A DNA stretch of 64,000 nucleotides from Pirellulales bacterium (GCA_963733035.1 CAVTBU010000005.1:2848001-2912000), one strand, 5' to 3'; numbered from the stretch's first letter, positions 24,271 through 49,925 are shown. Program-made: numbers and translations. Notes: generated by a model from the sequence alone, not told the origin.

Positions 24271-24717
24271 TTACGTTTCGACCGGTACTACGATCACGGT
24301 TCGCAGCGATCCTCGCATCACGTGCTCGGCCGTGGTGCCGAAGAGCAGCTTTTCGATCGGCCCTCGCGAACCAAAGCGACCCATGAGAATGGCGTCGACT
24401 TCGAAGTCCTCGGCCTTGCGGAGGATTTCGACGAAGGGCACCCCCTCGCAGACGATCGTTTGCACTTCAACGCGATCGCCGGCGCTCTCTTTGAGTGAAG
24501 CGAGTTCCTGCTCCGCCTGGGCTCTCATCTTTTCGACAATCATCTCGCGCGCTTCAAATCCCAGCCCGGTGGCAAATTCGACCAGCGCCGGGTCGATGGC
24601 ATGCAACAGGATCAGAGCGGCATCGTCGCCGCGAACCAGTTCCAGGGCCCGCTCAAAGACGCCGCGGGAAATAGGCGAAAGATCGACCGGCAGCAGCAGG
24701 GTATTGAGTTCGAACAT
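24271..24717 (-). CDS. Universal stress protein
   Basis: LLLPVDLS, ILMGRFG...LFGTTAEHVMR; AGGAAGG RBS. Confidence 0.9.
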   Translation of the reverse strand: MFELNTLLLPVDLSPISRGVFERALELVRGDDAALILLHAIDPALVEFATGLGFEAREMIVEKMRAQAEQELASLKESAGDRVEVQTIVCEGVPFVEILRKAEDFEVDAILMGRFGSRGPIEKLLFGTTAEHVMRGSLRTVIVVPVET

Positions 24718-24754
24718 GGAAGTACCTTCCTGTGGACCTGGAGCACCGTGCAAA

Positions 24755-24770
24755 TGCAATCCGTATGCCA
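24755..24770 (-). promoter_or_regulatory. sigma54 -24/-12 promoter for usp
   Basis: TGGCAT-ACGGA-TTGCA on the minus strand. Confidence 0.75.
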
Positions 24771-24824
24771 AGGGCTGATGCGTTCGACAACTTGCGAAGC
24801 TGGGCTGGGCAATTTTCCGGCAGT

Positions 24825-24858
24825 GTGCTCAAAATGCATGGCCTGAGCCAATTCGCAC
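24825..24858. promoter_or_regulatory. Candidate tandem upstream activator sequence between divergent sigma54 promoters
   Basis: GTGCTCAAAATGCA-N6-GAGCCAATTCGCAC; aligns with the reverse complement of 46548-46581. Confidence 0.5.
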
Positions 24859-24934
24859 GCTGCTATCAGCTTAAGGCGCCGCCCGTTGAAGGCAAGCTAC
24901 CGAATTCTGGGCATGCCTGCGGAGTGGCGAGTTT

Positions 24935-24950
24935 CGGCCCGCCGATTGCA
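24935..24950 (+). promoter_or_regulatory. sigma54 -24/-12 promoter for cytochrome c'-like gene and P-type ATPase
   Basis: CGGCCC-GCCGA-TTGCA (GG-N10-GC). Confidence 0.6.
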
Positions 24951-25009
24951 AAGTAAACTTTCTTGCGGCAATCGTCCCGAGTTCCCACGTTTTCAGAAGG
25001 AGTCTGGCG

Positions 25010-25426
25010 GTGATGAAAACATGCATAGTACTGACCTGCGGCCTGGTGTTGACCGCGCTGGTGGCCGGAGCAATCGCCGAGGAACCTCAGCATGAGGAGC
25101 CGGGCAGCTTTTGGATGAAGAAGAAGGTCGAGTACAGCGAGCGGATTCTGGAAGGCCTGGCGAAAGAGGACTATGAAGAGATCGCCAAGAGTGCCCGCTC
25201 GATGAGTGCTTTGACGCAGCTTGAAAAATGGGTGCGAGCCAGCGTGCCTGCGTATCGATCTCAGTTGCGGATCTTCGAGAACGCCAACGACCAGTTGATT
25301 CGCACGGCGGAAGCCGAGCAACTTGACGGCGCGGCCCTGGCTTACGTCCAATTGACGTTGAGTTGCGTCAATTGTCACAAAGTCGTCCGCGATAATCCGG
25401 CCGAGGCTGCACCACGAAAACCCTGA
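25010..25426 (+). CDS. Periplasmic cytochrome c'-like (class II) monoheme protein
   Basis: Signal peptide, helical body, C-terminal CVNCH; AAGGAG RBS. Confidence 0.75.
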
Positions 25427-25449
25427 GTTCAACCTTTGCGTCCGCTGCA

Positions 25450-27399
25450 TTGCTCCGGGGTACCAGGGCTCGGTCGCTCTGGTCGACGTGGGTGGCGCGC
25501 AAGGATGCGCTGATTGCCAGCCTGGCGCTAGCCGCGATTGCCACTTATTTGGTCCTGCGGTTTGCCGTGGGGCTCGAAGCGCGGTGGGCGAAAGCGCCGC
25601 TGATTTTCGCGCTCGCGATGGGGGGCGTTCCGCTCGTCTTCGAATTGGCGGTACGCGCCTGGCGCCGGCAGTTCGGTTCGGATCTGCTGGCCGGTATTTC
25701 GATTGTGACCTCGGTGTTGCTCGAAGAGTACCTGGCTGGCACGTTGGTGGTGTTGATGCTCTCGGGCGGCGGCGCCTTGGAGAATTACGCCGTGCGGAGT
25801 GCGTCCAGCGTGCTCGACGCGCTGGCCCGTCGCATGCCGTCGCTGGCGCATCGCAAGCAAGACGGCGGCCTGCTCGACGTGGCGCTCGACGACGTGGCGG
25901 TGGGAGACCAATTGGTTGTCTTGCCGCACGAAATCTGTCCGGTTGACGGCATCGTCGTGCTCGGGCATGGGGTAATGGACGAGTCGTATCTGACCGGCGA
26001 ACCCTATTTGATGTCGAAGACGCCCGGTTCGACGGTTCTGTCGGGGGCCATTAACGGCCATTCCGCACTGACGATCGAGGCCAGCCGCCTGGCGGTCGAC
26101 TCGCGCTATGCCAAGATCATGCAGGTGATGCGCGGCAGCGAACAGCAGCGGCCGCGCATTCGCCGGCTGGGAGATCAGCTGGGGGCATTCTACACGCCCC
26201 TGGCGGTGGCGATTGCCGTGGCGGCCTGGACGGTCAGCGGCGACCCGATTCGCTTCTTGGCGGTGCTGGTGGTGGCGACTCCATGTCCGCTGTTGATTGC
26301 GATTCCCGTGGCAATCATCGGATCGATTTCGCTGGCCGCGCGGCGCGGGATCATCATCAAGGACCCGGCCATCCTTGAGCAGGTGGAAAAATGCCGCGTG
26401 GTGATTCTGGACAAGACCGGCACGCTCACCTACGGCAAACCGCACTTGATTGCGCAGTACGTTGCAGCCGACGGCGACCGGCGGCGTGTGTTGCTTTTCG
26501 CGGCCAGCCTGGAACGCTACTCCAAGCATCCGTTGGCCGCCGCACTTCTCGAGGCCGCGCAAGCGGAAGAGCTAAAATTGCTCGATGCCAGTGCCGTTGG
26601 AGAATTGCCGGGCGAAGGCCTGGCCGGCACGGTCGATGGTCACGAAGTCCGTATCGCCAGCCGAAAACAAATTGAAGCACTCGATCCGGACGCCGGCGCG
26701 AATTTTCCGCCGACGGTGGGTGGACTTGAGTGTTGCGTGGCCATCGACGGCCGCTATGCGGCGACCTATGGCTTTCGCGACGAACCGCGGGCCGAGGGAT
26801 TTTCCTTCGTGGGGCATTTGCGCCCTCAGCACCATATCGAGCGGATCCTGCTCGTCTCGGGAGATCGCGAAAGCGAGGTCCGCTATCTGGCTGATCAGGT
26901 CGGCATCACCGAAATCTACGCTGGCCAAAGCCCCGAACAAAAACTGGAACTGGTGCGGCGCGAGACGTCCCAAGCGAAGACGCTGTTTCTTGGCGACGGC
27001 ATCAACGATGCGCCGGCGCTGACCGCCGCTACGGTGGGAATTGCCTTCGGCCAAAACAGCGACATCACGTCGGAAGCGGCCGGGGCGGTTATCATGGACA
27101 CCTCGCTCGCCAGAGTCGATGAATTCCTGCACATCGGCCGTCGCATGCGCCGCGTGGCCCTGGAGAGTGCCCTGGCGGGAATGACGCTGAGCCTGGTGGG
27201 CATGGGTTTGGCTGCCGCCGGCTACCTGCCGCCCGTGGCCGGCGCCGTCGCCCAGGAAGTGATCGACCTGGTGGCGGTGCTGAACGCGGTTCGAGTGGCA
27301 ATCCCCCCGCGTTCGCTTTCCGACTATCAGCGGTTTGACCGCGTCGAGCGAACCGAAGCCGGCGGAATGTCGCGGACAGGGGCCGCGAAAGAGATATAA
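25450..27399 (+). CDS. Heavy-metal P-type ATPase, P1B-5-type
   Basis: [30 protein letters not shown]; start uncertain. Confidence 0.88.
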
Positions 27400-27495
27400 T
27401 TGTCTGCGGGCTAAGACCTCTTCTGGCAGTTCGTTCCGTACCGAAGCCCAGGGCACCTCATTTCTCTCCGCGAGAACCACCGGGAGACTGTTGCC

Positions 27496-28926
27496 ATGCG
27501 ACGACGTGAGTTTCTTGTCACCGCGGCCGCGGCGACCTTGTCGAGTAACTTGCTTTTGCGGCGCGGACGCGCACATGAAACCGATCAGGAAGTCTGCCGC
27601 ACCTATGCCTCCCCCGCCGAGGCGATGGCTTCACCACGCGAACGAGACTTGTTCGTGACGGCCCTGCGGGTTGGAATCAACGACGCGCAGCCGGACTATC
27701 TGGCGGTGGTCGACGTGGATCCGAGCTCCAGAACGTATTCAAAAGTGGTGCACCGCGTGATGATGCCCACGCCGGGCGACGAGTTGCATCACTTCGGCTG
27801 GAATGCCTGCAGCAGTTGCCACGGCAAAGAAGGCGCGATGCGGCGCTATTTGATCGTGCCGGGTTTGAAGTCCGGAAACATTCATGTTCTCGATGCCGAG
27901 CACCCGCGGGCGACAAAGCTGCACAAGGTGATCGACGGCCAGCAGATTGCCGCTCGGACCAATCTGAGCGCCCCGCACACCGTGCATTGCCTGCCGAACG
28001 GGCAAATCATGATCTCGATGCTCGGCGACGCCCAGGGCGACACGCCGGGCGGTTTTCTGCTGCTGAACGAAAAATTCGAGGTCGCCGGTCACTGGGAACC
28101 GAAGCATAGCGGGCTGGAGTTCAACTACGACTTCTGGTACCAACCGCGGCACAACGTGATGGTTTCCAGCGAGTGGGGCGCGCCAAAAACGTTCGGCGGC
28201 GGATTCGACCTGAAGGACGTCGAGGCCGGAAAGTACGGGCACTCGCTGCTGTTTTGGGATTGGGACGCGCGGAAGCTGGTCGAAAAGATCGATCTGGGTC
28301 CGCAGGGCATGATTCCACTGGAAGTGCGGTTCCACCACGATCCGGACAGCACGCACGGATTCGTCGGCGCGGCCCTGTCGAGCACGATGTGGCATTGGCA
28401 TCAGGCCAATGGCCAGTGGCAGGTCGAGAAAGTGATCGAAGTCGAGCCGGTCGAAACCAAGGGCTGGCCGTTTCCCGTGCCGGGACTGATCACCGACTTG
28501 CTGGTGTCGATGGACGATAAATTCTTGTATTTCTCAAACTGGCTGCACGGCGATCTGCGGCAATACGACATCAGCGATCCGGCCGAGCCGAAACTAACCG
28601 GCCAATTGTGGTTGGGGGGCGTGATTGGACGCTCGGGCAAGTTTCGCGACCGCGACTTCGTGGGCGGTCCGCAAATGTTGCAGCTTAGTCTGGATGGGCG
28701 GCGGTTGTACGTTACCAATTCTCTGTACAGCAGTTGGGACAACGAGTTCTACCCCGAGATGGCGAAAGCCGGCTCGTCGCTGATGCGGATCGACTGCGAC
28801 CCGGCTGGTGGCATGAAACTGAACGAAGACTTCTACGTCGATTTTGGCCAGGAACCTGGTGGTCCGGCGCGGGCGCATGAGATGCGTTTCCCGGGCGGTG
28901 ACTGCACGAGCGACATTTGGGTGTAG
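27496..28926 (+). CDS. SBP56/SELENBP1-family protein (methanethiol oxidase-like) with Tat signal
   Basis: MRRREFL; DELHHFGWNACSSC, PHTVHC, YDFWYQPRHNVMVSSEW, PLEVRF, SNWLHGD, GGPQMLQLSLDG, GGDCTSDIW. Confidence 0.92.
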   Translation: MRRREFLVTAAAATLSSNLLLRRGRAHETDQEVCRTYASPAEAMASPRERDLFVTALRVGINDAQPDYLAVVDVDPSSRTYSKVVHRVMMPTPGDELHHFGWNACSSCHGKEGAMRRYLIVPGLKSGNIHVLDAEHPRATKLHKVIDGQQIAARTNLSAPHTVHCLPNGQIMISMLGDAQGDTPGGFLLLNEKFEVAGHWEPKHSGLEFNYDFWYQPRHNVMVSSEWGAPKTFGGGFDLKDVEAGKYGHSLLFWDWDARKLVEKIDLGPQGMIPLEVRFHHDPDSTHGFVGAALSSTMWHWHQANGQWQVEKVIEVEPVETKGWPFPVPGLITDLLVSMDDKFLYFSNWLHGDLRQYDISDPAEPKLTGQLWLGGVIGRSGKFRDRDFVGGPQMLQLSLDGRRLYVTNSLYSSWDNEFYPEMAKAGSSLMRIDCDPAGGMKLNEDFYVDFGQEPGGPARAHEMRFPGGDCTSDIWV

Positions 28927-28947
28927 TGGCGCAAAGGGGGAGGCACG

Positions 28948-29721
28948 ATGGAAAAATCGGTCGTTGATTTCAGTGTCGAGGGCGAAATCGGACTGATCGC
29001 GCTCAACAATCCCGAGCGGCGAAACGTGCTTTCGCGGATGGCGCTGCGGCAGCTCGTGAAGAGCCTGGATTCGGCCGAAGCCGATGGCGATGTGAAGTGC
29101 GTCATTCTGCGTTCGACCGGAAACGTGTTTTCGGCGGGGCACGACCTGCGCGAGGTCGTCGAAGCATCCGACGCGGAGCGCGAGAGTCTGTTCGCACTCT
29201 GCTCGGAAGTGATGCAGATGATTCGCGGGCTTTCGCTACCGGTCATTGCCGAGGTACAGGGCATTGCCACCGCGGCCGGCTGTCAGTTGGCGGCCACCTG
29301 CGATTTGATCGTCGCGGCCGAGGAAGCCAGCTTTGCCACGCCGGGCATCAAAATCGGGCTGTTCTGCTCGACGCCAGCGGTGGCCATCTCGCGGGTGATC
29401 AGCCCCAAGAAAGCGATGGAGATGCTGCTGACCGCCGAGCCCGTGGCGGCCCGCGAAGCCGAGCGGATCGGGTTGGTCAATCGGGTGGTCGCGCGCGAAG
29501 AGCTCCCCGAGGCCACGATGAGGCTCGCCCAACAGATTGCCATGGCCAGTCCGTACACGATCGGTCTGGGTAAGAAGGCGTTTTACGATCAGATTGCCCT
29601 CGACGTGGAGCAGGCGTACGCGCTGACCGAAAAGATCATGGTGGAAAACGCCCGGGCGGCGGATGCGATCGAGGGAATGCAGGCGTTTTTGGAGCGCCGG
29701 CCGCCCCGTTGGGGAAAGTGA
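28948..29721 (+). CDS. Enoyl-CoA hydratase/crotonase family protein (ECHDC3-like)
   Basis: FSAGHDL, ATAAGCQL, GLFCSTPAVA, EGMQAFLERR. Confidence 0.9.
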   Translation: MEKSVVDFSVEGEIGLIALNNPERRNVLSRMALRQLVKSLDSAEADGDVKCVILRSTGNVFSAGHDLREVVEASDAERESLFALCSEVMQMIRGLSLPVIAEVQGIATAAGCQLAATCDLIVAAEEASFATPGIKIGLFCSTPAVAISRVISPKKAMEMLLTAEPVAAREAERIGLVNRVVAREELPEATMRLAQQIAMASPYTIGLGKKAFYDQIALDVEQAYALTEKIMVENARAADAIEGMQAFLERRPPRWGK

Positions 29722-29728
29722 TGCCGCC

Positions 29729-29757
29729 TTGTTACGCCCCGTGGGCGATTCTAAACT
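29729..29757 (+). promoter_or_regulatory. Candidate sigma70-type promoter for the mutase cluster
   Basis: TTGTTA-17 bp-TAAACT. Confidence 0.4.
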
Positions 29758-29813
29758 AAAGGTTTCCAACCCTCGTGCTGGTTCCAGCTTTCGTGATTTG
29801 AGGAACTCCGCCA

Positions 29814-31462
29814 ATGGCTACCGCCATGGATCGCAAGCTTTGGGCCAAGTGGCAAGCGGAAATCGAAAAGGCCCCGCCACCTGCGTTGCCACCGACGACG
29901 GTGAGCAGCGTGCCCATCGATCCACTGTACACGCCGGACAATCTCGACGGCTTCGATTATGACAGCGAGTTGGGCTATCCGGGGCAGTATCCGTATACGC
30001 GTGGCGTGCATGCCACGATGTATCGCGGACGGTTGTGGACGATGCGGCAGTTTGCCGGCTTCGGTACCGCGCGGCAGACGAACGAGCGATTCAAGTTCCT
30101 GGTCGCCAAGGGGCAGACCGGTCTGAGCACGGCGTTCGACTTGCCCACGTTGATGGGTCTCGACAGCGACGATCCCCGTTCCTTTGGCGAAGTTGGCCGC
30201 TTGGGCGTGGCGATGGACACCATCGACGACATGCGGCAATTGTTCGACGGCATCGACATCGAAAAGCTGTCGGTGTCGATGACGATCAACGCGCCGGCGG
30301 CCATCGTGATGGCCTTCTACCTGGCCAATGCCGAGGACCGCGGCTTCGACTGGAAAAAGATGCGGGGTACGATTCAAAACGACACGCTCAAGGAGTTTCA
30401 CGCTCAGAACGAAATCTTCTTTCCGCCCGAGCCGTCGGTGCGGTTGGCGATCGACGTGGTCGAGTTCTGCGCGCACCACGTGCCGCAATGGAATCCGGTG
30501 TCGATCAGCGGTTATCACATTCGCGAGGCGGGTTCCACCGCCGCGCAGGAGCTCGCATTCACGCTGGCGGACGGTTTTCACTACGTCGACCAGTCGCTGG
30601 AGCGCGGACTGGACGTCGATCAGTTTGCCGGCAGGTTGAGCTTCTTCTTCAACGCCCATAACGACCTGTTCGAGGAAATCGCGAAATACCGCGCGCGCGC
30701 AGCGTGTGGGCCGACCGGCTGCGGAATCACTACGGCGCGAAGAAGGAAGCCTCGTGGAAGCTGCGGTTCCATGCCCAGACGGCGGGATGTTCGTTACAAG
30801 ACAAGCAACCCGAAGTAAATTTGATTCGCGTGGCCTATCAAGCTCTAGCCGCGGTGCTCGGCGGTTGCCAGTCGCTGCATACCAATAGCATGGATGAGAC
30901 ACTGGCGCTCCCTTCGGAGCATGCCGTGACGCTGGCCTTGCGCACGCAGCAGGTGTTGGCCTATGAGACGGGTGTCACGAATACGGCGGACCCCGTGGGT
31001 GGCAGCTACTTTGTGGAAACACTCACCCGGCAAATGGCCGACGAGGCGCGTCGATACTTTGAACGAATCGACGAGCTGGGGGGCATGCTGGCGGCGATTG
31101 ATCGGGGGTTTTTCCGCCGGGAGATTGCCGAGGCGGCGTTTGAATACCAGCGAGAAGTCGACGCCAGGCACAAGCTGATAGTGGGCGTCAACGCTTTCCA
31201 GGAAACTGAGGAGAAGCCGCTCGACATCCTGCAGATTGATCAAGCCGTGGAAACCGAGCAGGTTGCCGCGCTCGATCGCGTGAAGGCCGATCGCAGCCGG
31301 CAGGACGTCCACCGCGCACTCGATGCTGTGCGCCGCGCGGCCGAAGCCAAGGAGAATCTCCTGCCGTCGCTGATCGAGGCTGCCCGCTCCCGCGCCACTG
31401 TGGGCGAAACAATGCATGCGCTGGCAGACGTTTACGGTCGTTGTGATACGGCGGTGGTGTAA
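29814..31462 (+). CDS. icmA: B12-dependent acyl-CoA mutase large subunit, isobutyryl-CoA mutase-type (apparent frameshift near 30695)
   Basis: [60 protein letters not shown]; no fused B12 domain. Confidence 0.8.
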
Positions 31463-31519
31463 CAGCTCACTTCTCCGCAAGACTCCCGTTTTAGATCTCC
31501 TGGTTGGTAGGGCCTTCCG

Positions 31520-32407: not shown

Positions 32408-32421
32408 CAAAAGGGCCGATC

Positions 32422-33731: not shown

Positions 33732-34124
33732 CTACAGCGGATGGCTGCGGGCGCAATCGATGCACCAGGCCGTGTACGGGACGGCCTTCAATCGCGCCCG
33801 AGCGATTTCGCGATCGCAGTCCTCGCAGGTTCCATAGGTTCCCGCCTCGATTCGCTCGAGCGCCGCTTCTACCTGCTCGAGGAGTTGCTCTTCGTTTTGA
33901 GCGAGGACGAGTTGCTCGTCGAGTCCTTCGACATCCTGATCGCCGGGGTGCATCCGCGAAGCGCTATGCCCACCTGCCGACATGATATCTTCGCGGAGCG
34001 CTTCCTCGGTGGAAGTGACGTCGCTAATAAGTCGTTTGCGGAGGGCCAGCAGCCGGGGCTTCTGCTCGCGTTGGTCGTTGAGTTCCACTTGCGTCTCCTT
34101 GGTTTGGCGGATGCTTCGTGACAA
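33732..34124 (-). CDS. TraR/DksA C4-type zinc finger protein
   Basis: ALERIEAGTYGTCEDC...RLKAVPYTAWCIDC; start uncertain (possibly GTG 34088). Confidence 0.85.
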   Translation of the reverse strand: MSRSIRQTKETQVELNDQREQKPRLLALRKRLISDVTSTEEALREDIMSAGGHSASRMHPGDQDVEGLDEQLVLAQNEEQLLEQVEAALERIEAGTYGTCEDCDREIARARLKAVPYTAWCIDCARSHPL

Positions 34125-34205
34125 CCGAGGGTACGACTAACGCGATCCTGCCGGCGCGTTGGTGTAAACATCTTCTTCTTCGACTAGCTTGGCATTGACC
34201 GGGAT

Positions 34206-34221
34206 GGCTATTCTCTTGCCA
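34206..34221 (-). promoter_or_regulatory. Probable sigma54 promoter for the DksA-like gene
   Basis: TGGCAA-GAGAA-TAGCC (GG-N10-GC) on the minus strand. Confidence 0.5.
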
Positions 34222-34364
34222 GCCAAGTTGTCGTTCATTTTAGCACCTTCGTTGCGATTCCGCCTTGTTGCGCGAGTTGCGGGCGAACCTTTGACTTTTG
34301 CATCCGGATAGCAAAAAATGCGCCAGACCGAACGTCGCTGACACTGGCAAGGTTGGCGGGCTCA

Positions 34365-34380
34365 CGGCATGTGCTTTGCA
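34365..34380 (+). promoter_or_regulatory. sigma54 promoter for hsp20-lon
   Basis: CGGCAT-GTGCT-TTGCA. Confidence 0.7.
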
Positions 34381-34459
34381 CCCCGAGGGACTTGGGGTGG
34401 CAGCGAGGCGGATCTCCTTTGTCCCTACCGGTTCCACGGCGTCTGACCCACTGAGCCAC

Positions 34460-34828
34460 ATGGATTCTCACTCGCGGCACTTTGGCGAACTGTTTGTGGC
34501 GGCGGCCGGCTCGTTTGGTCGGCCGTTTTGGCGTCCGGCGGTCGACGCCTATCAAACGGTGCACGGGTGGCTGCTCAAGTATGAGCTGGCCGGCGTGGCG
34601 CCCCAGGACGTCGAGGTGTTGTTGGCAGGGCGGACGGTCACCGTGCGCGGCATGCGCCGCGACTTGCGAGTCGAAGGGAACCAGCAGTCGTATTGCATGG
34701 AGATTTCCTACAACCGCTTTGAGCGATCGTTGGATCTTCCCTGCGAGGTCAACACGATGGACGTCGCCACGCGTTTTCAAGATGGAATGCTCTTCGTGCA
34801 GCTTACGTGCAAGGAGAATCCCCGGTGA
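34460..34828 (+). CDS. Hsp20/alpha-crystallin small heat shock protein
   Basis: WRPAVDAY, ELAGV, VRGMRRD, EISYNRFERSLDLP, FQDGML. Confidence 0.85.
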   Translation: MDSHSRHFGELFVAAAGSFGRPFWRPAVDAYQTVHGWLLKYELAGVAPQDVEVLLAGRTVTVRGMRRDLRVEGNQQSYCMEISYNRFERSLDLPCEVNTMDVATRFQDGMLFVQLTCKENPR

Positions 34829-37238
34829 ATGCCCCCGAACAAACTCGCACGCTCCCGGTGCTACCGATCAAGAACACGGTGCTCTATCCGTATCTGCTGA
34901 TGCCGTTGTCGGTGGGGCGAGAGCGTTCCATCGCCGCGGTGGAAGCCGCCTCGGCGAGCGAGGATAAGACGATCCTGATCGTGGCCCAACGAGACGGACG
35001 TGTCGAGGAACCCACGTTCGAACAGCTCTATACGGTGGGGACCGAGGCCGTTATCAAGCGGCTGGAGCGGACGACGGGCACGATCCAAATGATCGTGCAG
35101 GGAACGCGGCGGATGGAAATCGTCGAGCCAACCGTGGGCTCTCCGTACTTGCAGGCCAACGCCCGAGAACTGGCCGAGCCAGACGACAAGGGAGACGAGA
35201 TCGACGCGCTGGAGCGCAACATTGTCGATCAGGCCGGGCAAATTCAGGCGATGGCCGGCGCCGAGGCCCAGCTCAGCATCGCGCAAATCTTGTCGCAGTT
35301 CAAAGACCCCCTGCACAAAGCCTATATGTTGGCGTCGATGCTGAGCCTGGAACTGGAAAAGGAACAGCAGCTGCTCGAGGCGAACTCGCGGCTGGCCGCG
35401 CTGCGGCTCATGCATGAATTCCTCGCGCACGAAATGCAGATTACCGAGCTGCGACAAAAGATCGCCAGCCAGGCCCAATCGGAAATGAGCCGCGAACAGC
35501 GCGAGTATCATCTGCGGCAACAACTACGGGCGATCCAGGAGGAGTTGGGAGAAGGGGGCGGCGAGCAGGGGGAGGTCGATGAACTTCGCAGCCGGCTGAC
35601 CGAGACCGAACTGCCCGACGACGTGCGCAAGGAGGCCGAGCGCGAGTTGGGACGCCTCGAACGCTTGCCCACCGCGGCGCCCGACTATCAGATTACGCGT
35701 TCCTACCTCGAGCTGATTCTGGAACTCCCCTGGACCAAGACGACCGAGGACAATCTTGACCTTGCCCGGGCACGGCAAGTTCTGGACGAGGATCACTATG
35801 ACCTCAAGGAGATCAAGGAGCGGATCGTCGAGCAGTTGGCCGTGCTGAAACTCAACCCGGGCGCCAAGGCTCCGATCCTCTGTTTCGTGGGGCCGCCGGG
35901 CGTCGGCAAGACGTCGCTCGGTCAATCGATTGCCCGGGCGCTGGGACGCAAGTTTGAGCGGATGAGCCTGGGCGGCATGCACGACGAGTCGGAATTGCGC
36001 GGGCATCGCCGCACGTATATTGGGGCCATGCCCGGGCGGATTTTGCAGGCGATTCGCCGCGCCGGGGTGCGCAATCCATTGCTGATGCTCGACGAGGTCG
36101 ACAAGCTGGGACGCGACTATCGCGGCGATCCCTCAGCGGCGCTGTTGGAAATTCTCGATCCGGCGCAGAACTTTGAGTTTCGCGACAACTACTTGAATCT
36201 GCCGTTCGACCTGTCGCGGACGTTCTTCATCGCCACGGCCAACACGCTTGATACCATTCCGCGGCCACTGCTGGACCGCATGGAAATCCTGCGGCTCACC
36301 GGTTACAGCGAGGAAGAGAAGGTGCAAATCGCTCGCCGCTACCTGATTGCCCGGCAGCTCAAGCAAACCGGGCTCACGGACGAGCAAATTCAGTTTCCGG
36401 ACGAAACCCTGCGCGAAGTGATCACGCATTACACGCGCGAAGCAGGCGTGCGGCAGCTTGAGCGATTGATCGGCCAGTTGGCCCGCAAAGTGGCTGTTGG
36501 TTTTGCCGAGGAGAAGGGGCAGGCGACAACGATTCGTCCCGAGGATCTGGGCGACATGCTTGGTCCCGAGCGGTTCTTTCTCGAACGCGTTAGAGAAACG
36601 TTGCCCGCCGGCGTGTCCACCGGGCTGGCCTGGACCGAGACCGGCGGCGAGGTACTTTACATCGAGGCGCTCAACTTGCCCGGCGGACACGATCTGATGC
36701 TCACCGGTCAACTGGGTGAAGTGATGCGCGAGAGCGCCGAGCGGCGCAGAGCTACATCTGGTCGCAGGCGGCGGCGCTGGGTATCAGCGAGGAAGCGCTC
36801 AAGTCGTCCGGCGTACACATTCACGTGCCGGCCGGCGCGATTCCCAAGGACGGCCCGTCGGCCGGAGTGGCGATGGCCGCGGCCTTGGCCTCCATGTACA
36901 GCGGAGAACCAACCCGCGGCGACACGGCCATGACCGGCGAAATCACACTCACGGGCCTGGTGCTTCCGGTCGGCGGCATCAAGGAAAAGGTGCTAGCCGC
37001 CCGGCGTGCCGGCATCCAGACGGTCATTCTGCCCGAGCAAAACGCCAAGGACTTACCCGAGCTGCCGGACGAAGTGCGCAAGGAGATGAAGTTCGTGCTG
37101 GCCAAGCGGATCGAGGACGCGCTAAGCGTGGCAATTCCGGCGCTCGCCGAGCGGCTGAGCGGCCGAGCATCGATTCGGTATGCCGATGTGCCCCAAGGAA
37201 ATGGGAAGCAAGCGGGCAGAGAACAGAAGGTGAAGTGA
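34825..37238 (+). CDS. lon: Lon protease (apparent frameshift near 36738)
   Basis: LON N-domain, [23 protein letters not shown] (Ser) and GGIKEK (Lys); GTGA overlap with the hsp20 stop; AAGGAG RBS. Confidence 0.93.
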
Positions 37239-41024: not shown

Positions 41025-41278
41025 GGTCGTTATTTCCGTGGAAGTACTTCGATAGGGGACTGGGTCCAACTTATCAGAACGCAGGGCCGTTGGGGACCGC
41101 GGCCGCGGCGATTTGCACTCGCTCCGGGCTGCCAGGCAGGCGATAATCGGCGGCGAACTTTACAATCAATGCCGGCCCGAAATGCGAGCGCGGAGAGGTC
41201 ACGCGCGTTCCCCTTGCTTGCCGTTCGGGTTTGTATCGGGGCTAGGTCGTTGCCTTCTTGCATCAGGAGTTCCCTTCC

Positions 41279-41845: not shown

Positions 41846-41876
41846 TCTCGCACGACGCGGGAGAGGAACCAGCGTA

Positions 41877-42740: not shown

Positions 42741-42756
42741 TGTCAGCCGCCCGGGC

Positions 42757-43758
42757 TCAGTCGGCTGGCGGAACGAGCACGGCAGCGCCGCTCAGCCGAC
42801 CCTCGCGAAGATCGGCCAATGCTTCGTTCGCTTTTTCCAGGGGATAGGGAGTCGCTTGCGGCCGCACGCCCGCCTGGGCGGCGAGGGGCAGGAATTCATC
42901 GCCGTCGCGACGGGTGAGGTTGGCGACCGATCGCACGATGCGCTCGCCCCAGAGAAGTTTGTACGGGAACTGAGGGATGTCGCTCATGTGGATGCCGGCA
43001 CAGACAACCGATCCGCCCTTGGCCGTGGCCGCCAAAGCCGCGGGGACGAGCGACCCGACCGGAGCATAAATAATGGCCGCATCGAGCAATTCCGGGGGCA
43101 ACGCCGTGGAGTCGCCGCTCCAGTCGACGCCCAATTGTCGGGCGAAAGCCTGGGCCTGCTGATCGCCCGGCCGCGTAAACGCAAAGACGTTCCGACCTTG
43201 GAACTGGGCAACCTGCGCAATCAAATGGGCGGCGGCTCCGAACCCATAGATGCCCAGCCGCTTTGCGTCGCCGGTCATGGCCAGCGAGCGGTAGCCAATC
43301 AGACCCGCGCAGAGCAGGGGCGCCGCTTCGATGTCGCCGTAGTGCGCGGGAATGGGGAAACAGAATTGCTCGTTGGCGACTGTGAATTGGGCGTAGCCGC
43401 CATCTCGCGTGTAGCCTGTGAACTCTGGCCGGTCGCAGAGGTTTTCTTGACCGGCCCGGCAGTAGCGACATTTGCCACAAGTATTGCCGAGCCAAGGAAC
43501 TCCCACGCGATCGCCCGGCGCGAAGCGACGCGTACCCGGCCCAACGTCCGCAACCTCGCCGACAATTTCATGACCGAGGATCAGCGGGAGCTTCGGATCT
43601 GGCAGTTCGCCGTCCACCACGTGCAGGTCGGTCCGGCAGACACCACAGGCCAACACTCTCAAGAGCACCTCGCCCACGCCGCAGGTTGGCTTGGGCAACT
43701 GGCGAGCCTGAAGTGGCGAATGCGGCTGGTCGAGCACCATTGCCAGCATGGTTGTCAT
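42757..43758 (-). CDS. Zinc-dependent alcohol dehydrogenase
   Basis: CGVCRTD, GHEIVG, CGKCRYC...C, LLCAG, GIYGFGAAAH. Confidence 0.92.
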   Translation of the reverse strand: MTTMLAMVLDQPHSPLQARQLPKPTCGVGEVLLRVLACGVCRTDLHVVDGELPDPKLPLILGHEIVGEVADVGPGTRRFAPGDRVGVPWLGNTCGKCRYCRAGQENLCDRPEFTGYTRDGGYAQFTVANEQFCFPIPAHYGDIEAAPLLCAGLIGYRSLAMTGDAKRLGIYGFGAAAHLIAQVAQFQGRNVFAFTRPGDQQAQAFARQLGVDWSGDSTALPPELLDAAIIYAPVGSLVPAALAATAKGGSVVCAGIHMSDIPQFPYKLLWGERIVRSVANLTRRDGDEFLPLAAQAGVRPQATPYPLEKANEALADLREGRLSGAAVLVPPAD

Positions 43759-43869
43759 TGTGTCACACCAAGCGGTTCGTTGATTGTCATTCGCACAGCT
43801 GGCGCGGAGATCGCACATCGATTATGCACTTACATCGCAAAACTTCGAAATTGGCTCCATTTTCGCACT

Positions 43870-43885
43870 CGGCATGAAATTCGCT
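43870..43885 (+). promoter_or_regulatory. Probable sigma54 promoter for the BON-domain gene
   Basis: CGGCAT-GAAAT-TCGCT (GG-N10-GC); CGCAC half-sites 20 bp apart upstream (43792, 43812). Confidence 0.55.
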
Positions 43886-43899
43886 AGATGGTGGGCGTC

Positions 43900-44247
43900 A
43901 TGTCGACAAGCCGCCCTCGCACCCGACAGGATTCGAAAATGATTGCACCCCGCTATGCGTGCCAGCGCCAGTTTGTATCCGATCGCGACCGCGAATTGTA
44001 TGCCGCAGCCACCGAGGTGCTCGCCATGAGCAAGTACACGGCGCTACGGCAACTGACATGTCGGGTGCAGGGGGGCATGGTAGAAATTTCGGGTACCGTT
44101 GCAACTTTTTACTTGAAGCAGTTGGCCCAGGCGGCCATGTTGCGACTTCGGCCGGAGGGCAGAGTACGGAATCTGGTGGAAGTGACGGGTGAGCCATGGG
44201 CTGTCGTGGCGACCAGTTGCGCGCCAGCCCCGGCCTCGGCGGGATAA
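43900..44247 (+). CDS. Small BON-domain-like protein
   Basis: GMVEISGTVATFYLKQLAQ...VRNLVEV; start uncertain (43888/43900/43939). Confidence 0.7.
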   Translation: MSTSRPRTRQDSKMIAPRYACQRQFVSDRDRELYAAATEVLAMSKYTALRQLTCRVQGGMVEISGTVATFYLKQLAQAAMLRLRPEGRVRNLVEVTGEPWAVVATSCAPAPASAG

Positions 44248-44299
44248 GGCAGAGAAAATACAATTTAGAACGTCTACGGCCGCCGGGTCTAACGATCTG

Positions 44300-44330
44300 C
44301 CGCCGTTTTCGTTTTCCAGACGGCGGGTTT
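44300..44330. terminator. Possible hairpin between convergent genes
   Basis: CCGCCGT-N13-ACGGCGG followed by GTTT. Confidence 0.25.
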
Positions 44331-44355
44331 GAGTGTGTCGATGCGGCGACAAGCC

Positions 44356-45271
44356 CTAACCGACTTGCGGCACAACCAGCACGGAACACGGGGCATGATT
44401 GAGGACCGCTTCGGTCGTGCCGCCGAGCAGCGTGGTGGTCAGCCAGTTTTTGTGATGGACGCCCACGACGACCACGTCGATGTTCTCCTTGGCGACGGTT
44501 TCGAGGACAGCCTTGGCCGGTTCCCCTTCGGTCACCACCGGACTGCAGTGTTCGCATACGCCGGGCAGCTTTTTTGAAAACTCGCTCATTTGGTCTCGCA
44601 CGGCTTGCAGTTCCTGGTCGTGTTCCCGAGCCCAGGCCTGCACCAACTCCTCGACATCAGGGCTGCGGGCCTGTTGCTGAAGCCAGTCGGGCACCTTGCC
44701 GGCAAACATCGAGGGAACCACCGTCAGCGTATGGCAGGTGGAGCTTTCGGGCCACGAAAAGGCGCTAAGAACTTCAGCCTGGCGACATCCCTTCTCCGGG
44801 TTTTCGCACGCCACGAGTACATTTGCGCCGGGATGCCCCAGGTTCTTCTTGCCGGCCCTGGCGACCCAAACCGGAACTTTTGCAGCGTGCACCACAGCCC
44901 GCGAAACGCTTCCCAGGAGCATGCGTTCGAGCGTACCCAGTCCGCGGGCGCCGACGACGATCAACTCCGCGCCCCACTCGTCGGCCGCCGTGACGATGCC
45001 GTGCCGCGCGTCGTGGGACCCGGTGATTGTTTGCACGCCCGACCGCAGCGATTCGGGCAGCTGCTTGCGAGCCTCTTCGAACACGGCGTCGACCAATCCC
45101 TGCCGCGCTCGAGTGATCACCTCGCTACTGGCCGTAGTGACCAATGACGAAGTGTCGGGCGGTGCGCAGGTAGAAAGCTAGCTCATCGTGCTCGGCATTT
45201 AAGAGTTGCCCCACTTGGGCAACCGCATCAAAGCAGCCGGACGATCCGTCGACGGCAAACAGCACTTTCAT
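44356..45271 (-). CDS. Tandem-domain universal stress protein (apparent frameshift near 45170)
   Basis: MKVLFAVDGS from ATG 45271 joins the ORF 44356-45144; VVGARG...LLGSVS and VVGVH...LLGGTT. Confidence 0.88.
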
Positions 45272-45320
45272 TGCACTCAATCTCCCAAACGAACGGGCTG
45301 CACGACCGCCAGCGCCGCGG

Positions 45321-45725
45321 CTACTTCAGGTCCAAGCTGGCCATGCGGACGTCGCGCACGTATTTGTGGCACTCGACGCAACGCAATGTAACGAGATTGA
45401 AGGCCTTCGTCGCCGCGTCGAGGTTCTTTTTCTTAGCCGCGTCTGCGAGCGCGTCAGAAGCAGTGCGGAACTTCTTGCTGTACTCGATGTATTGCGGCGT
45501 CTGCAAAACCTGCCAGGTTTCGGCCAGGCTGAGCAGGCTCATATCCTGGGCATTTTTGGCGATCTTGTCGAAGTCGCCGGACACCAGGCCTTCGATGACG
45601 TTTTGCGAGTGATGGAGTTTCACTTCCATGAAGTCGCTTAGGTCTCCCTTTTGTTTCGCATCGCTGGTGGAAATGGCGACCATGCATGCAACCGCCAAGA
45701 TGCTTCCCGTGGCTACTCGTTTCAT
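45321..45725 (-). CDS. Periplasmic cytochrome c'-like monoheme protein (paralog of 25010)
   Basis: Signal peptide; FMEVKL...EGL...DFDKIAK; C-terminal CVECH. Confidence 0.75.
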   Translation of the reverse strand: MKRVATGSILAVACMVAISTSDAKQKGDLSDFMEVKLHHSQNVIEGLVSGDFDKIAKNAQDMSLLSLAETWQVLQTPQYIEYSKKFRTASDALADAAKKKNLDAATKAFNLVTLRCVECHKYVRDVRMASLDLK

Positions 45726-45791
45726 CGATCCGCTCCCATGGATTTGATCGCGGTGTTGAGACCGCGTCTGAACTGCGATTGAAAACTCGGT

Positions 45792-46229
45792 TTACTCGGG
45801 GGCATGCGTGGCATGCTTGACCGTCAACACGGGGCACTTCGCATAGCGCATCACCGACTCCGCCACACTCCCCATCAGCACGCGCATCAAGCCCGTGCGA
45901 CCATGCGTGCCGATGACGATCAGGTCGGCCTTCTCATCTTCGGCAACACGAACGATATCCTCGGCGGCGGCGCCCATCACCAGCCGATGTTCGAACTTGA
46001 CATTCTTATCGGGGGGCACGACGGCGTCGAGCATTTTTCGCACTTCGGGATTGGGATACTCGGGCTGCGCGAAATACATCTCCCCGCCGGCATAAGGCAT
46101 CGGCATTTCCTCGACGTGGGCAATCACCAAAACCGCGCCAGAATCGCGGGCCAGGGCCGTGGCGTACTCCAGAGCGCTTTCGCTGGCCGGAGAGAAGTCC
46201 GTCGCGAAAAGGATTTTTTGGTAGTGCAT
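45792..46229 (-). CDS. Universal stress protein
   Basis: ILFATDFS, GTHGRTG...MGSVAESV. Confidence 0.93.
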   Translation of the reverse strand: MHYQKILFATDFSPASESALEYATALARDSGAVLVIAHVEEMPMPYAGGEMYFAQPEYPNPEVRKMLDAVVPPDKNVKFEHRLVMGAAAEDIVRVAEDEKADLIVIGTHGRTGLMRVLMGSVAESVMRYAKCPVLTVKHATHAPE

Positions 46230-46327
46230 CGCTTCGTACCTTTATGACTGAATTGGTTATCTACCCGACAGGTCGAAGAACTCTCAGACGGTTATGGCTT
46301 GCGCGGATCGACTACCCCTCGAAGTGA

Positions 46328-46343
46328 AGCAAACTCAGTGCCA
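46328..46343 (-). promoter_or_regulatory. sigma54 promoter for usp-cytochrome-usp operon
   Basis: Consensus-perfect TGGCAC-TGAGT-TTGCT on the minus strand. Confidence 0.82.
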
Positions 46344-46544
46344 TGGCCAAGCGGCCAACGCAACATTCGCGTCGCCGCGCTGGGTCCGCGACCTCGGCAG
46401 TCGTCAGCGCCTGAGGCACATTTACCGGGCGGCAGTCCAAATCTATCGCGCAATCGGCGTTTTTCGTGCGTAAATCCCTCACTACGAAGAGAATTCGGAT
46501 TCACCGTTGGCGGTGTTTGATCATCCATAGTGAAGTATACTCGA

Positions 46545-46581
46545 TATGTGCGTATTCGCACATACGGGCACATTTCCGCAC
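46545..46581. promoter_or_regulatory. Palindromic candidate enhancer (UAS) with second half-site
   Basis: Perfect TATGTGCG-TATT-CGCACATA (46545-46564); second CGCAC 20 bp downstream (46577-46581). Confidence 0.6.
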
Positions 46582-46672
46582 GGGCGGGGGGCGCCCGGGG
46601 TTCGATTGCCTTCGGGGAAACTCGCCGGGAAATCACGGCACTTTCCTGCGTTCGGGTCCTCGGGGTCGTTCT

Positions 46673-46688
46673 CGGCACGGAGGTTGCG
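46673..46688 (+). promoter_or_regulatory. sigma54 promoter for the NtrC-family regulator
   Basis: CGGCAC-GGAGG-TTGCG. Confidence 0.68.
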
Positions 46689-46728
46689 AAGCAGTGTGTT
46701 CACCCACTTTCAGCGCGCGAGTTTCGCC

Positions 46729-48127
46729 ATGAATTACGATCCCAAGAAGATTGATCTGATGCTCGTCGACGACGATGCTGACTTCCGCGAGACGGTTGCG
46801 CGGCGATTCATGCGGCGCGGCTTTCAGGTGCAAGAAGCGACGCACGGCGAGCAGGCATTGCAATTGGCCGATTTGCGCCAATTCGACGTCGTCGTGCTCG
46901 ATATGGTGATGCCCGGCATGTCGGGGATTCAGGTTCTTGAGCAGCTCAAGCTCAAGCACCCCGAGTGCGAGGTGATTTTGCTCACCGGCCAAGGCACGAT
47001 CGAAACGGCCGTCCAGGCGATGAAGCTGGGAGCATACGACTTTTTAACGAAGCCGTTTCCGTTGGCCGAACTGGAAGTCCTCATCGAAAAGGCCTACGAA
47101 CGCCGGCAACTCCGCAAGGAGAACGTGCAGCTCAAGGCCGTGCTCAAGCGCGAACAGGCGACGCCCGAGATTATTGGGAAGTCGGGGGCGATGCAGGAGG
47201 TCTTTCGGTTGATCGAGCGCGGGACCGACGGAAAAGTCGATCTTGATTCAGGGTGAAAGCGGCACTGGCAAGGAGCTGGTGGCCAAGGCTCTGCAGCGCG
47301 CCAGCAATCGGGCCGATAAACCGATGGTCACGATCAATTGCGCCGCGCTGCCTGAAACGCTGCTTGAAAGTGAGCTATTTGGGCATGAGAAGGGGGCGTT
47401 TACCGGCGCGATTGCCACCAAACCAGGTCTCTTTGAAGTGGCCGACGGCGGCACGCTGTTTATTGATGAAATCGGCGAATTGGCCGGCCCGCTGCAGGCG
47501 AAGTTATTGCGCGTGCTGGAAGACGGTTCGATGCGGCGCATCGGGTCGCTCAAAGAGCGGCGCGTCGACGTGCGATTGCTCGCGGCGACAAATCGTGACA
47601 TGGACCAGGAAGTGGCCGAAGGGCGGTTTCGCGAGGACTTGTACTACCGAATCAATGTGATGTCGCTGCAATTGCCTCCGCTGCGCGAACGACACGGCGA
47701 CATTCCCCTGATCGTGCGGCACATTTTGGGCGACGAATGGACCGTGACGTCCGACGCCCTGCGGGCACTTGAGTCTTATCATTGGCCCGGCAACGTGCGG
47801 CAATTGATGAACGCCATCGAGCGCGCGCAGATCATGGCGGACGGCAAGTGCATCGACATCGACGCGCTTCCGCGTGAAATTTCGGCCGGAAAATGCCCAA
47901 GCGCGCAGCGGACCGAAGCCCATCGTCCGGACGGAGAGTTCCTGGCCGACATCCAGCGGGCGCACATCATCGAGGTGCTCAAACGCGAACGCGGCAACAA
48001 AGCTCGGACCGCTCGGGCGCTGGGCGTTAATCGTCGTAGCCTATACCGGCTGCTCGAAAAATATCAGATCGAGCTGCCGTCCGAAAATGAGGGCGGGCAC
48101 GTGACGGCCATGGCGACGAAGTCCTAG
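46729..48127 (+). CDS. sigma54-dependent NtrC-family response regulator (REC-AAA+-Fis HTH; apparent frameshift near 47219)
   Basis: [53 protein letters not shown]. Confidence 0.93.
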
Positions 48128-48384
48128 AGAACTTGCCTGGCCGGGCAACGAACTTGGCAGTTCGTAACGCCCGCCGTTCAAAGCGAGAGCCCCGGTTTAC
48201 GCGAAGGCACCGGCGGCTATTCCGAGTTGCGTGGCCGCACATGTGACGTGCGGCTGTGTCAGGCCGACGCGCCCGTGGACGACGCAGCGGGGCGTTTTTC
48301 GCGTGCCACGCCTTGCGCAACAGGTTGCCGCACAAGCAATTAGGCGACCATCGTGGGTCGGTAGTGAGCAGCACATCTGGAGAG

Positions 48385-48400
48385 TGGCACGGTGGATGCA
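48385..48400 (+). promoter_or_regulatory. sigma54 promoter for small membrane protein
   Basis: TGGCAC-GGTGG-ATGCA; TTGCG-N4-CGCAC element at 48227-48240. Confidence 0.68.
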
Positions 48401-48448
48401 ATGGGTTTGAATGGTCCGTCGTTATTCCATTGAAGGGAGCAATTAGTC

Positions 48449-48676
48449 ATGGCAACCGTTGGCCCAACCCGCAGCAGTCTCGTCGATAAACTCACGTGGT
48501 ATAAGAGCACGGCTCGTCACAGCGTCTGGGATCGGTTTACGAAGGACGAGCAGGAACGGATGCTTGCCGACGATATGGCGGCCGGAACACGGGTGTCGAT
48601 CGAGTTGACAGCCTTGATCGCCACGGGGATGGTGCTTTGCATCGTAACTGTCTTGGCGGTCGTGTTGCTGCGGTAG
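48449..48676 (+). CDS. 75-aa protein with a single C-terminal TM helix
   Basis: AAGGGAG RBS, own sigma54-type promoter, fills the gap between regulator and kinase. Confidence 0.7.
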   Translation: MATVGPTRSSLVDKLTWYKSTARHSVWDRFTKDEQERMLADDMAAGTRVSIELTALIATGMVLCIVTVLAVVLLR

Positions 48677-48680
48677 ACAA

Positions 48681-49925
48681 CTAGCGTGTTCCGGCTCGTT
48701 TGAGCAGCACGAAGAACGAGCTGCCAGCGCCGACTTCCGATTCGACCCACACGCGACCCTGCTGCTGTTCGACCATGGTCTTGACGAAATAGAGACCCAG
48801 GCCCGAGCCGGGGATTTCGCGGTGGTTTGGAAGCCGGCGAAATGGGACGAAGACGCGGGCCAGTTCCTCGGAAGGAATGCCGGGCCCATTATCGGAAATG
48901 CTGAATACGCAATCGCCATCGCGAAGTTCGCAGTCAATTTCAATGCGGCCGTGGCGTTTGTCGCTGAACTTCACGGCATTCGACAGCAGGTTGTAGAACA
49001 CCTCGCGAATTCGGGTGCGATCGCCAAGTACCTTCGGCATGTCGTGGGCGACCGTCAATTCGATCTTCTTCTGTTTGACGAGTGGTCGCACTTGATCGAC
49101 AGCCTCGGCCATGACTTGGTTCATATCCACGATGTCCTGGGGAATGTCGGCATGAAGCGACATGGTCGAGTGCAGGAGTTCGTCGATGGTTGTGCTCATG
49201 CGAAAGGCCCGTTGACGTGCCGCTTCGATCAACTGAGAGGCTTCGCTGGGCATCTGGTCGCGGAATTCGTCGAGGGCTTCGTCGCACAGATTTGCCATGG
49301 TGGCTAGCGGTGTTTTCAGGTCGTGCGACGTTAGCTGGGCAAATTGCCGCAATTCGGCGTTGGCCTGATAAACCAGATCCAGCGCCTTGCGAAGACTTTG
49401 CGTGGCTTGGCTGAAATACGCTTCGAGCGTGAGCCCGATGTCGAGGAAAACCGCCTTCTGCAGCGATAGTAACTGATCGGCGCAGATCTTGGCCGGACCG
49501 TCTAAATGCGCCGAGAGCTCGCGCAAGCAGAATTGCAGATACTGGTTGTAGGCTCCCAAGAAGATTTGCGGGCTAATGCCGACTTGGGCATGTGCATCGC
49601 CGACACGGTAGCGGCGATCGATGTAATCGTCGTTCCATTCCGCCGCGAGCATCGACTCCAAATGCAACTGCTGTGCCAGTTTAAGTCGTTCGACGAGTTG
49701 CGGATCACGCAGGAATTGAGCCGTTTCCTCAAAGGCAAAGAGGTGCTTGTAGAACGATTCGACGAAATCGAGGCCGCGTGCGTTCAGCGCGGGGGCCAGC
49801 TCGCGGAGTCGCTCGCGGTCCGCTTCGGCGATATCGAGAAAGGCCAACTTGCGTGCCAGCGATTTGATTTGAGACGGGTGCGGCGACGCATCGTTGTTTA
49901 GCGACGTTTCGGACGGCGAGGTCAT
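48681..49925 (-). CDS. Globin-coupled sensor histidine kinase (protoglobin-HisKA-HATPase)
   Basis: FVESFYKHL (B10 Tyr), VGDAHAQVGI (proximal His), SHDLKTPL, NLLSNAVKF, DNGPGI, GSGLGL; no TM. Confidence 0.9.
   Translation of the reverse strand: MTSPSETSLNNDASPHPSQIKSLARKLAFLDIAEADRERLRELAPALNARGLDFVESFYKHLFAFEETAQFLRDPQLVERLKLAQQLHLESMLAAEWNDDYIDRRYRVGDAHAQVGISPQIFLGAYNQYLQFCLRELSAHLDGPAKICADQLLSLQKAVFLDIGLTLEAYFSQATQSLRKALDLVYQANAELRQFAQLTSHDLKTPLATMANLCDEALDEFRDQMPSEASQLIEAARQRAFRMSTTIDELLHSTMSLHADIPQDIVDMNQVMAEAVDQVRPLVKQKKIELTVAHDMPKVLGDRTRIREVFYNLLSNAVKFSDKRHGRIEIDCELRDGDCVFSISDNGPGIPSEELARVFVPFRRLPNHREIPGSGLGLYFVKTMVEQQQGRVWVESEVGAGSSFFVLLKRAGTR

Follow-up and report, generated by a model that had tools for sequence, protein, structure and literature searches.

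We analysed a soluble globin-coupled histidine kinase, the sigma-54-dependent activator encoded beside it and the genes that the pair may control in a 64,000-nucleotide stretch of DNA from a Pirellulales bacterium (GCA_963733035.1, CAVTBU010000005.1:2848001-2912000; hereafter the window, in which positions are counted from the first letter). Contig C5, which contains the window, belongs to a 6.6 Mb assembly that is 92% complete. The kinase gene (48681..49925, - strand) encodes a Protoglobin-HisKA-HATPase protein, and the activator gene (46729..48127, +) a REC-AAA+-HTH protein with Pfam matches to REC, Sigma54_activat and HTH_8, in which the GAFTGA motif is present; the genome also has rpoN. 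Between the two is a gene for a 75-aa membrane protein (48449..48676, +), which falls in clusters of planctomycete hypothetical proteins and has no Pfam match. On the other side of the activator are usp3 (45792..46229, -), a cytochrome c'-like gene (45321..45725, -; Pfam Cytochrom_C_2 at E 3e-5, just under the cut-off), usp2 (44356..45271, -), which encodes a tandem-domain universal stress protein (USP), and a gene for a BON-domain protein (43939..44247, +), whose identity was confirmed through orthologs only (Pfam BON in 10/10 alignment members). The arrangement adh-BON-usp-cyt c'-usp-activator-small protein-kinase is seen again across the family, and in reduced form across the order. A second island consists of usp1 (24271..24717, -) and, divergent from it, a further cytochrome c'-like gene (25013..25426, +) and a P1B heavy-metal ATPase gene with a TPCP motif (25492..27399, +; TIGR01525 and TIGR01512 above cut-off), which we take to be of the P1B-5 type. 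The product of 25013..25426 has a C-terminal CxxCH and is a paralog of the other cytochrome c'-like protein; it has no Pfam match and was placed through Atlas clusters that carry Cytochrom_C_2 on 12% of their members. Pfam further supported all three Usp proteins and, in a separate group of genes, Hsp20, Lon and a DksA/TraR finger, confirming the gene identities of the original prediction.

In the assembly the activator appears as two open reading frames, broken at ~47216. Contigs from three of the four sequencing runs (X1, X2 and X4) carry two additional bases at this position, and two of these three contigs show 0-1 other differences. We therefore attribute the break to an assembly error and reject a broken activator; orthologs of the activator are mostly intact. 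Three of the 13 genes for bacterial enhancer-binding proteins (bEBPs) are split in the assembly, which is therefore indel-prone, and the same assembly splits usp2 (near 45169, where the X2 contig has one base fewer) and lon.

To locate promoters we scored sequences with an approximate matrix derived from the sigma-54 consensus. Of the eight -24/-12 sites of the original prediction, seven scored 10.7-16.6 bits, values reached in 0.3-3.7% of 4509 upstream regions, while the eighth, before the dksA-like gene (34206-34222, -), proved weak at 9.3 bits. The good sites precede usp1 (24755..24771, -; 15.6 bits, with an opposite-strand site also in orthologous cytochrome loci), the cytochrome c'-like gene and P1B ATPase (24934..24950, +; 10.7 bits, conserved), BON (43869..43885, +; 13.5 bits), the usp3-cyt c'-usp2 group (46328..46344, -; 16.6 bits), the activator itself (46672..46688, +; 12.4 bits), where the site would serve autoregulation, the small membrane protein (48384..48400, +; 14.2 bits) and hsp20 (34364, +; 14.4 bits). 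The sites recur upstream of orthologs, at 28/28 activator, 16/21 usp3, 13/15 small membrane protein and 10/10 BON loci (all counts including the window). Scored against shuffled sequence, the matrix found 46 sites of at least 14 bits genome-wide compared with a shuffle mean of 11.3, and tandem gaps held 24 sense and 3 antisense sites; the sigma-54 motif is thus real across the genome. The kinase gene has no sigma-54 promoter of its own, weak sense sites being present in only 3/30 loci. GG-N10-GC matches at 43799, 43851 and 24851 were rejected as promoters, since they overlap enhancer sequence or, for 43799, an assembly error. Strong sites also precede groEL-, groES-, dnaK-, csrA-, P-II- and superoxide-dismutase-like genes (names read from N-termini), and the heat-shock genes among them may, to judge from these sites, use sigma-54 with another activator. 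With 13 activators in the genome, sigma-54 sites alone therefore define no regulon.

What delimits the regulon is a predicted enhancer. Unseeded Gibbs sampling of the activator promoters of 26 relatives returned the palindrome GTGTGCG-aatt-CGCACAC, present in 26/26 and lying 83-126 nt upstream of the -24 box, and the enhancer occurred together with a sigma-54 site in 18/27 held-out loci (16/21 of those of at least 60% identity). With a matrix trained without the window, the best match in the genome was ATGTGCGTATTCGCACAT (46546..46563; 21.4 bits), in the gap between usp3 and the activator, with a further half-site 20 nt beyond it. A second copy (24843..24860; 17.8 bits) lies between the usp1 and cytochrome c'/P1B promoters, which diverge from it and share it, their sigma-54 sites being 71 and 73 nt away, and at a threshold of 10 bits it was found in 15/20 orthologous loci of at least 55% identity and in 0/10 more distant ones. 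At BON the full palindrome matrix scores below 3 bits in the window; a half-site scan found two half-sites (43790..43818, +) 70 and 50 nt upstream of the promoter, which recur at 70-73 nt and at 50-51 nt, each in 8/10 loci. Upstream of the small membrane protein, half-sites occupy no fixed position, and the membership of this gene is uncertain. The genome thus has rpoN, a GAFTGA activator, -24/-12 sites and an upstream palindromic enhancer, as expected of a sigma-54 regulon governed by a bEBP, and the predicted enhancer, GTGTGCG-N4-CGCACAC, places the usp/cytochrome/P1B island inside this regulon and the dksA/hsp20-lon genes outside it.

The latter group (33732..37238) had been proposed as a third island. 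Neither the window nor any of 16 orthologous loci had an enhancer above 10.4 bits in the gap between the dksA-like gene and hsp20-lon, and the hsp20-directed sigma-54 site is strong (at least 13 bits) in only 3 of those 16. The gap does contain a conserved element, TTTGACTTT-N11-TTGCAAAAAATGCGCC (34291-34326). Toward hsp20-lon it reads as a sigma-70-like TTGACT-17-AAAAAT (34291-34319, +) with a GC-rich discriminator, overlapped by an opposite-strand sigma-54-like site toward dksA (34310-34326, -; 17 bits), which is present at 13 bits or more in 11/16 loci. Given the sigma-70-like character of the conserved element and the lack of the activator's enhancer, we rejected the dksA/hsp20-lon genes as regulon members, and the three islands of the original prediction therefore become two.

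We then asked how far enhancer and promoter coincide elsewhere in the genome. Genome-wide, 18 of 356 enhancer matches are paired with a sigma-54 site and a gene, whereas eight permuted matrices gave 2-6 of ~352. We regard the regulon as real, comprising the two islands of the window and several loci elsewhere. Predicted targets are a cbb3-type oxidase operon with a copper ATPase, an acetate-CoA ligase gene (acs) followed by pyruvate dehydrogenase, a sulfhydrogenase-type (group-3b-like) NiFe hydrogenase, a host-attachment protein with a PCMT-esterase fusion, a YbaK-USP protein, a phosphoribosyltransferase (PRTase), a DUF2934 protein, a second Hsp20 and an SQR-like gene. Several enhancer pairs of 11-14 bits, and those at dnaK and a sulfatase, may be due to chance, 2-6 such pairs being expected; we excluded from the counts the enhancer at C5:1788441, whose sigma-54 site lies upstream of it. 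The cbb3 promoter pair was present at 5/19 loci in genomes with a kinase of the window type (one gene being counted twice among the 19) and at 7/20 loci in genomes with the alternative NmpS-type wiring described below, compared with 4/1197 control regions. The CcoN-like subunit keeps its histidine ligands and upstream Tyr and scores below the TIGR00780 cut-off. The acs pair was found at 4/5 loci, and the PRTase enhancer at 3/3, one of these with a strong sigma-54 site. Divergent from the hydrogenase is an alternate (N-type-like) F1Fo ATPase operon (L100:1822-7163, equivalent to C5:1771822-1777163), which shares the tandem enhancer gap and has no sigma-54 site in its own direction.

By analogy, the content of the regulon points to low oxygen. 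In the DosS/DosT-DosR system of mycobacteria, a GAF-heme sensor acts through a LuxR-type regulator on sigma-70-family promoters, and its targets likewise include USPs, Hsp20, a PRTase, an esterase fusion and a NiFe hydrogenase; the sensor of the window, like DosS and DosT, is predicted to be active without oxygen. The regulators are not homologous, the window having instead a globin kinase and a sigma-54 AAA+ activator. In M. smegmatis, for comparison, the hydrogenase Hyd3 is induced by hypoxia alongside clusters of DosR type (PMC2799521). The proposal that a sigma-54 regulon of DosR-like, low-oxygen content is linked to the globin kinase and the activator next to it is supported by the conserved enhancer and by genome-wide targets such as the oxidase and the hydrogenase, whereas the dormancy programme that the original prediction gave as an alternative is not supported.

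A system of comparable design exists in Myxococcus xanthus. There, when oxygen is present, the protoglobin kinase NmpU keeps the hybrid kinase NmpS silent by phosphorylating it. When oxygen is low, NmpS switches on NmpR, a sigma-54 activator that recognises GCGCA-N5-TGCGC and raises expression of its own operon and of genes for a USP, a P-type ATPase with a cbb3 oxidase, HemN and a hemerythrin (PMC11841059). Homologues of nmpSTU had previously been noted in a planctomycete (PMC6211767). The window system shares with NmpRSTU a soluble protoglobin kinase, a REC-AAA+-HTH sigma-54 activator and tandem enhancers and, by prediction, positive autoregulation and USP, P-type ATPase and cbb3 targets. 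It differs in having a kinase of another family (H-box HDLKT rather than HE[IL]RN, linker 39 rather than 34), in having neither NmpT nor a linked NmpS, in its enhancer sequence, and in that its kinase gene, unlike nmpU, is not under the activator. The NmpR motif was also tried as the enhancer and rejected: it is absent from five of six intergenic regions, its sole copy (two mismatches) lying in the excluded hsp20 island. The window activator matches NmpR in architecture and is a candidate ortholog of it; the same activator family adjoins NmpU-T-S cassettes in relatives, and a profile search of 1.84 billion proteins gave no myxobacterial protein among the named members. We conclude that the window system operates along the lines of NmpRSTU without belonging to that system. 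The original prediction knew of no such regulon; the concept of a globin-kinase/sigma-54 hypoxia regulon was, however, already known from Myxococcus (PMC11841059), and a sigma-54 regulon prediction for Planctomycetia had reported enriched USPs (COG0589), Lon-type proteases, chaperones and NtrC-family regulators, the available part of that paper naming no oxygen sensor, enhancer or specific regulon (PMC12316311). What seems new is the different kinase, apparently replacing a three-protein inverter. Our search, in literature mostly outside subscription journals and with supplements excluded, found no description of this planctomycete system, the kinase family, the enhancer, the circuit swap or a deoxy-active globin kinase.

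The absence of a signal inverter, which the original prediction had missed, makes the polarity of the kinase the key question. No NmpU-type gene was found in this 92% complete genome; among its called genes there is no NmpT-like REC-REC protein, the best tblastn matches covering single receivers; and no NmpS-type hybrid inverter is linked to the island. Across relatives, the window-type kinase and the activator travel together: full-length orthologs of the kinase occur in 30/60 relatives, all 30 of which also have the activator, and 48/80 kinase loci have the activator within 8 kb. The activator is the more widespread of the two, being found in 43/60 relatives and 66/221 genomes of the class (kinase, 16/221). 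The two sensor types are distributed in a complementary manner, with 21 of the 30 genomes that carry the window-type kinase having no NmpS-type kinase, and 12 of the 13 activator genomes without the window-type kinase having one. Three sensor arrangements in fact stand beside this one activator family: the window-type kinase alone, a full NmpU-T-S cassette (L199), and fusions of an NmpU-type globin to an NmpS-type kinase (L200, L303). NmpS-wired activator genes also carry the enhancer with a sigma-54 site, in 12/33 cases. On an activator tree built with FastTree (two rows dropped, one duplicate and one frameshifted) the kinase types interleave, with 7 changes, though many branches are weak. 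At receiver helix-1 positions 20/21, which we take to be numbered after HK853-RR468, Arg-Arg is found in 50/51 activators beside a window-type kinase and in 3/32 beside an NmpS-type kinase, and these residues face conserved acidic residues of the DHp domain after His201; the signature is suggestive of a mark of kinase pairing.

Several side observations concern this distribution. The globin/NmpS-type fusions, in which a PAS domain is optional, occur at L200:10030-11841, L303, L304, L305 and L306, beside the same activator family at L200, L305 and L306; two direct fusions have linkers of 38 and 40, and the fusions are a second candidate for inverted polarity. One genome (G004; L208, L046) has both the window-type kinase with the activator and, ~28 kb away, a full NmpU-T-S cassette whose upstream region holds a 17.2-bit enhancer near a cbb3 gene. 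About 30 genomes of family f31 (L307-L312) have NmpU/NmpS-type genes, but the activator is present in only 1/54. The kinase relatives are labelled Pirellulales or Planctomycetia, and 79 of the 80 kinase loci are titled planctomycete; the remaining one (L146), titled Acidimicrobiales, carries a whole planctomycete-type island with the enhancer, through either mis-binning or transfer.

The kinase itself has all the parts of a globin-coupled histidine kinase: a sensor globin with Tyr59 (B10) and His112 (F8), a HisKA His201 in the H-box HDLKT, and N, G1 and G2 boxes. Y59, H112, H201, N316 and the G boxes are invariant in 25/25 aligned kinases, and B10 is Phe in 2 of the 83 kinases whose H-box fits the pattern; heme binding is predicted. 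Identity to planctomycete NmpU-type kinases is 25-26%. The globin scores 38 bits against that of AfGcHK (Anaeromyxobacter sp. Fw109-5, PDB 5OHE) and 52 bits against HemAT, whereas a planctomycete NmpU-type globin scores 100 bits against AfGcHK. Also invariant in the 25 aligned kinases is Cys214, 13 residues past the phospho-His. In RegB a cysteine acts as a redox switch, and by analogy a similar role is possible for Cys214.

With AfGcHK the window kinase shares the globin-HisKA-HATPase layout and the alignment of distal Tyr and proximal His, while the opposite polarity is predicted for it. AfGcHK shows activity in its Fe(II)-O2 state and none as deoxy Fe(II) (PMC8697598), and its signal has to be inverted by NmpS (PMC6211767, PMC11841059). 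The distance from a conserved helix-H acid to the phospho-His is 39 residues in 82/83 window-type kinases and 46, one heptad more, in the other; it is 34 in 16/16 NmpU-type kinases and in AfGcHK (Glu149 to His183). In the predicted structure the last globin helix runs into the DHp as a single helix (residues 144-224, linker pLDDT 62-64), a continuity that, if the model holds, allows inverted polarity, and changes of linker register can invert the output of engineered kinases (PMC11164954). If, in some genomes, one activator, enhancer and cbb3 target are turned on at low oxygen by an oxygen-active kinase plus inverter, a single kinase that takes the place of both should be net-active without oxygen.

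On balance, we therefore lean toward a two-component sigma-54 low-oxygen regulon of Planctomycetia, in which the globin kinase is net-active without oxygen and acts directly on the activator. On this reading the soluble kinase would bind heme in its globin, being a net kinase in the absence of oxygen and a net phosphatase with oxygen bound, and the receiver of the neighbouring activator would be its direct target. Once phosphorylated, the activator would bind GTGTGCG-N4-CGCACAC at a distance of ~70-140 nt (200 at most) upstream of -24/-12 promoters and induce its own gene, the USPs, the cytochromes c', the P1B ATPase and BON, as well as the distant cbb3-type oxidase with its copper ATPase, acs-pyruvate dehydrogenase, the group-3b-like NiFe hydrogenase, Hsp20, the phosphoribosyltransferase and the PCMT-esterase fusion. 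A number of points weigh against this picture. Heme binding, direct phosphotransfer and low-oxygen induction are predictions, and the polarity of the kinase is the least secure of them: the linker comparison spans two kinase families, and a 5-residue shift is no proof of inversion. Thirteen of the 80 kinase loci have full flanks and no activator nearby, and 9/30 genomes carry both kinase types. The genome has an unlinked, degenerate REC-kinase (C8:509372) that is 39% identical to the NmpS type. The Arg-Arg signature, with three independent pairs on well-supported branches, is not significant in a test that was underpowered. Finally, several targets are patchy, the YbaK-USP pair being found at 1/5 loci, that of the second Hsp20 at 0/1 and the SQR-like gene in 0/5 genomes, while the conservation count for the hydrogenase was left out as its promoter fell outside the DNA compared.

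The same low-oxygen regulon could also operate with a kinase that keeps the AfGcHK polarity and either serves only as an oxygen-on phosphatase or sink or relies on an inverter encoded elsewhere, the activator being phosphorylated by another donor such as an orphan kinase or acetyl phosphate. The H-box bears a D-x-x-T motif, which has a phosphatase role; the REC-kinase at C8:509372 is an NmpS-like orphan, and nine of the 30 genomes keep an NmpS-type kinase; among the genes in or next to target loci are acs and one that resembles an ADP-forming acetate-CoA ligase. We nevertheless consider this arrangement unlikely, because an NmpS-type kinase is missing from 21/30 genomes, the orphan has no ortholog in 5/5 close relatives, and the conserved island contains no further REC or kinase gene. 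It is similarly improbable that direct wiring is combined with the AfGcHK polarity, so that the regulon is switched on by oxygen, NO or CO in the oxygen-exposure response of a usually anoxic organism. The conserved distal Tyr and proximal His, the NO binding of cytochromes c' and the ability of a high-affinity oxidase to scavenge incoming oxygen would suit such a response, as would the ligand activation of the characterised AfGcHK (PMC8697598). However, this activator family, with the same enhancer and cbb3 target, is also found together with a full NmpU-T-S cascade that, by homology, is on at low oxygen, and the USP, Hsp20 and hydrogenase content fits hypoxia regulons (PMC11841059; PMC2799521). 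That kinase and activator are mere neighbours, the sigma-54 promoters being divided among the genome's 13 activators with no single regulon, does hold for the hsp20-lon island and would account for sites before groEL-, dnaK- and P-II-like genes, but is very improbable in view of the common palindrome at fixed spacing, the genome-wide pairing above controls and the complementary kinase distribution.

The remaining features of the window lie at the edges of the two islands. A zinc alcohol dehydrogenase gene (42757..43749, -; TIGR02822), divergent from BON and syntenic, has a near sense sigma-54 site in 0/9 loci and one distant match, and is a candidate regulon member at most. A DabA/DabB-type inorganic carbon transporter with a carbonic anhydrase (54617-61860, -) adjoins the island, and no enhancer of at least 10 bits was found in that region. 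Apparent gene splits or truncations occur in the window at 13759-14213, 29814-30818, 36740, 45169, 47216, 50609-53237 and 57350-61860, in genes for IF3, methylmalonyl-CoA mutase, Lon, a USP, the activator, DUF1549/1553 and DabA (fused to the next gene); their number indicates assembly indels.

Returning to the low-oxygen regulon with a deoxy-active kinase, a more far-reaching proposal can be made, which we hold tentatively, at slightly below even confidence. The window-type proteins may form a globin-coupled kinase family with inverted logic, Planctomycetia having repeatedly swapped an NmpU-T-S cascade, a globin/NmpS fusion and a single kinase onto one activator, enhancer and regulon, with the inversion residing in a fixed 5-residue helix difference. 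If true, this would be a natural counterpart of the engineered linker inversions. The matched natural pairs, in which the same activator and targets are joined to different sensor wiring, bear on how the sign of a kinase is set and on how cascades simplify in evolution, and a large, mostly uncultured bacterial class gains a defined oxygen-response regulon together with a usable binding motif.

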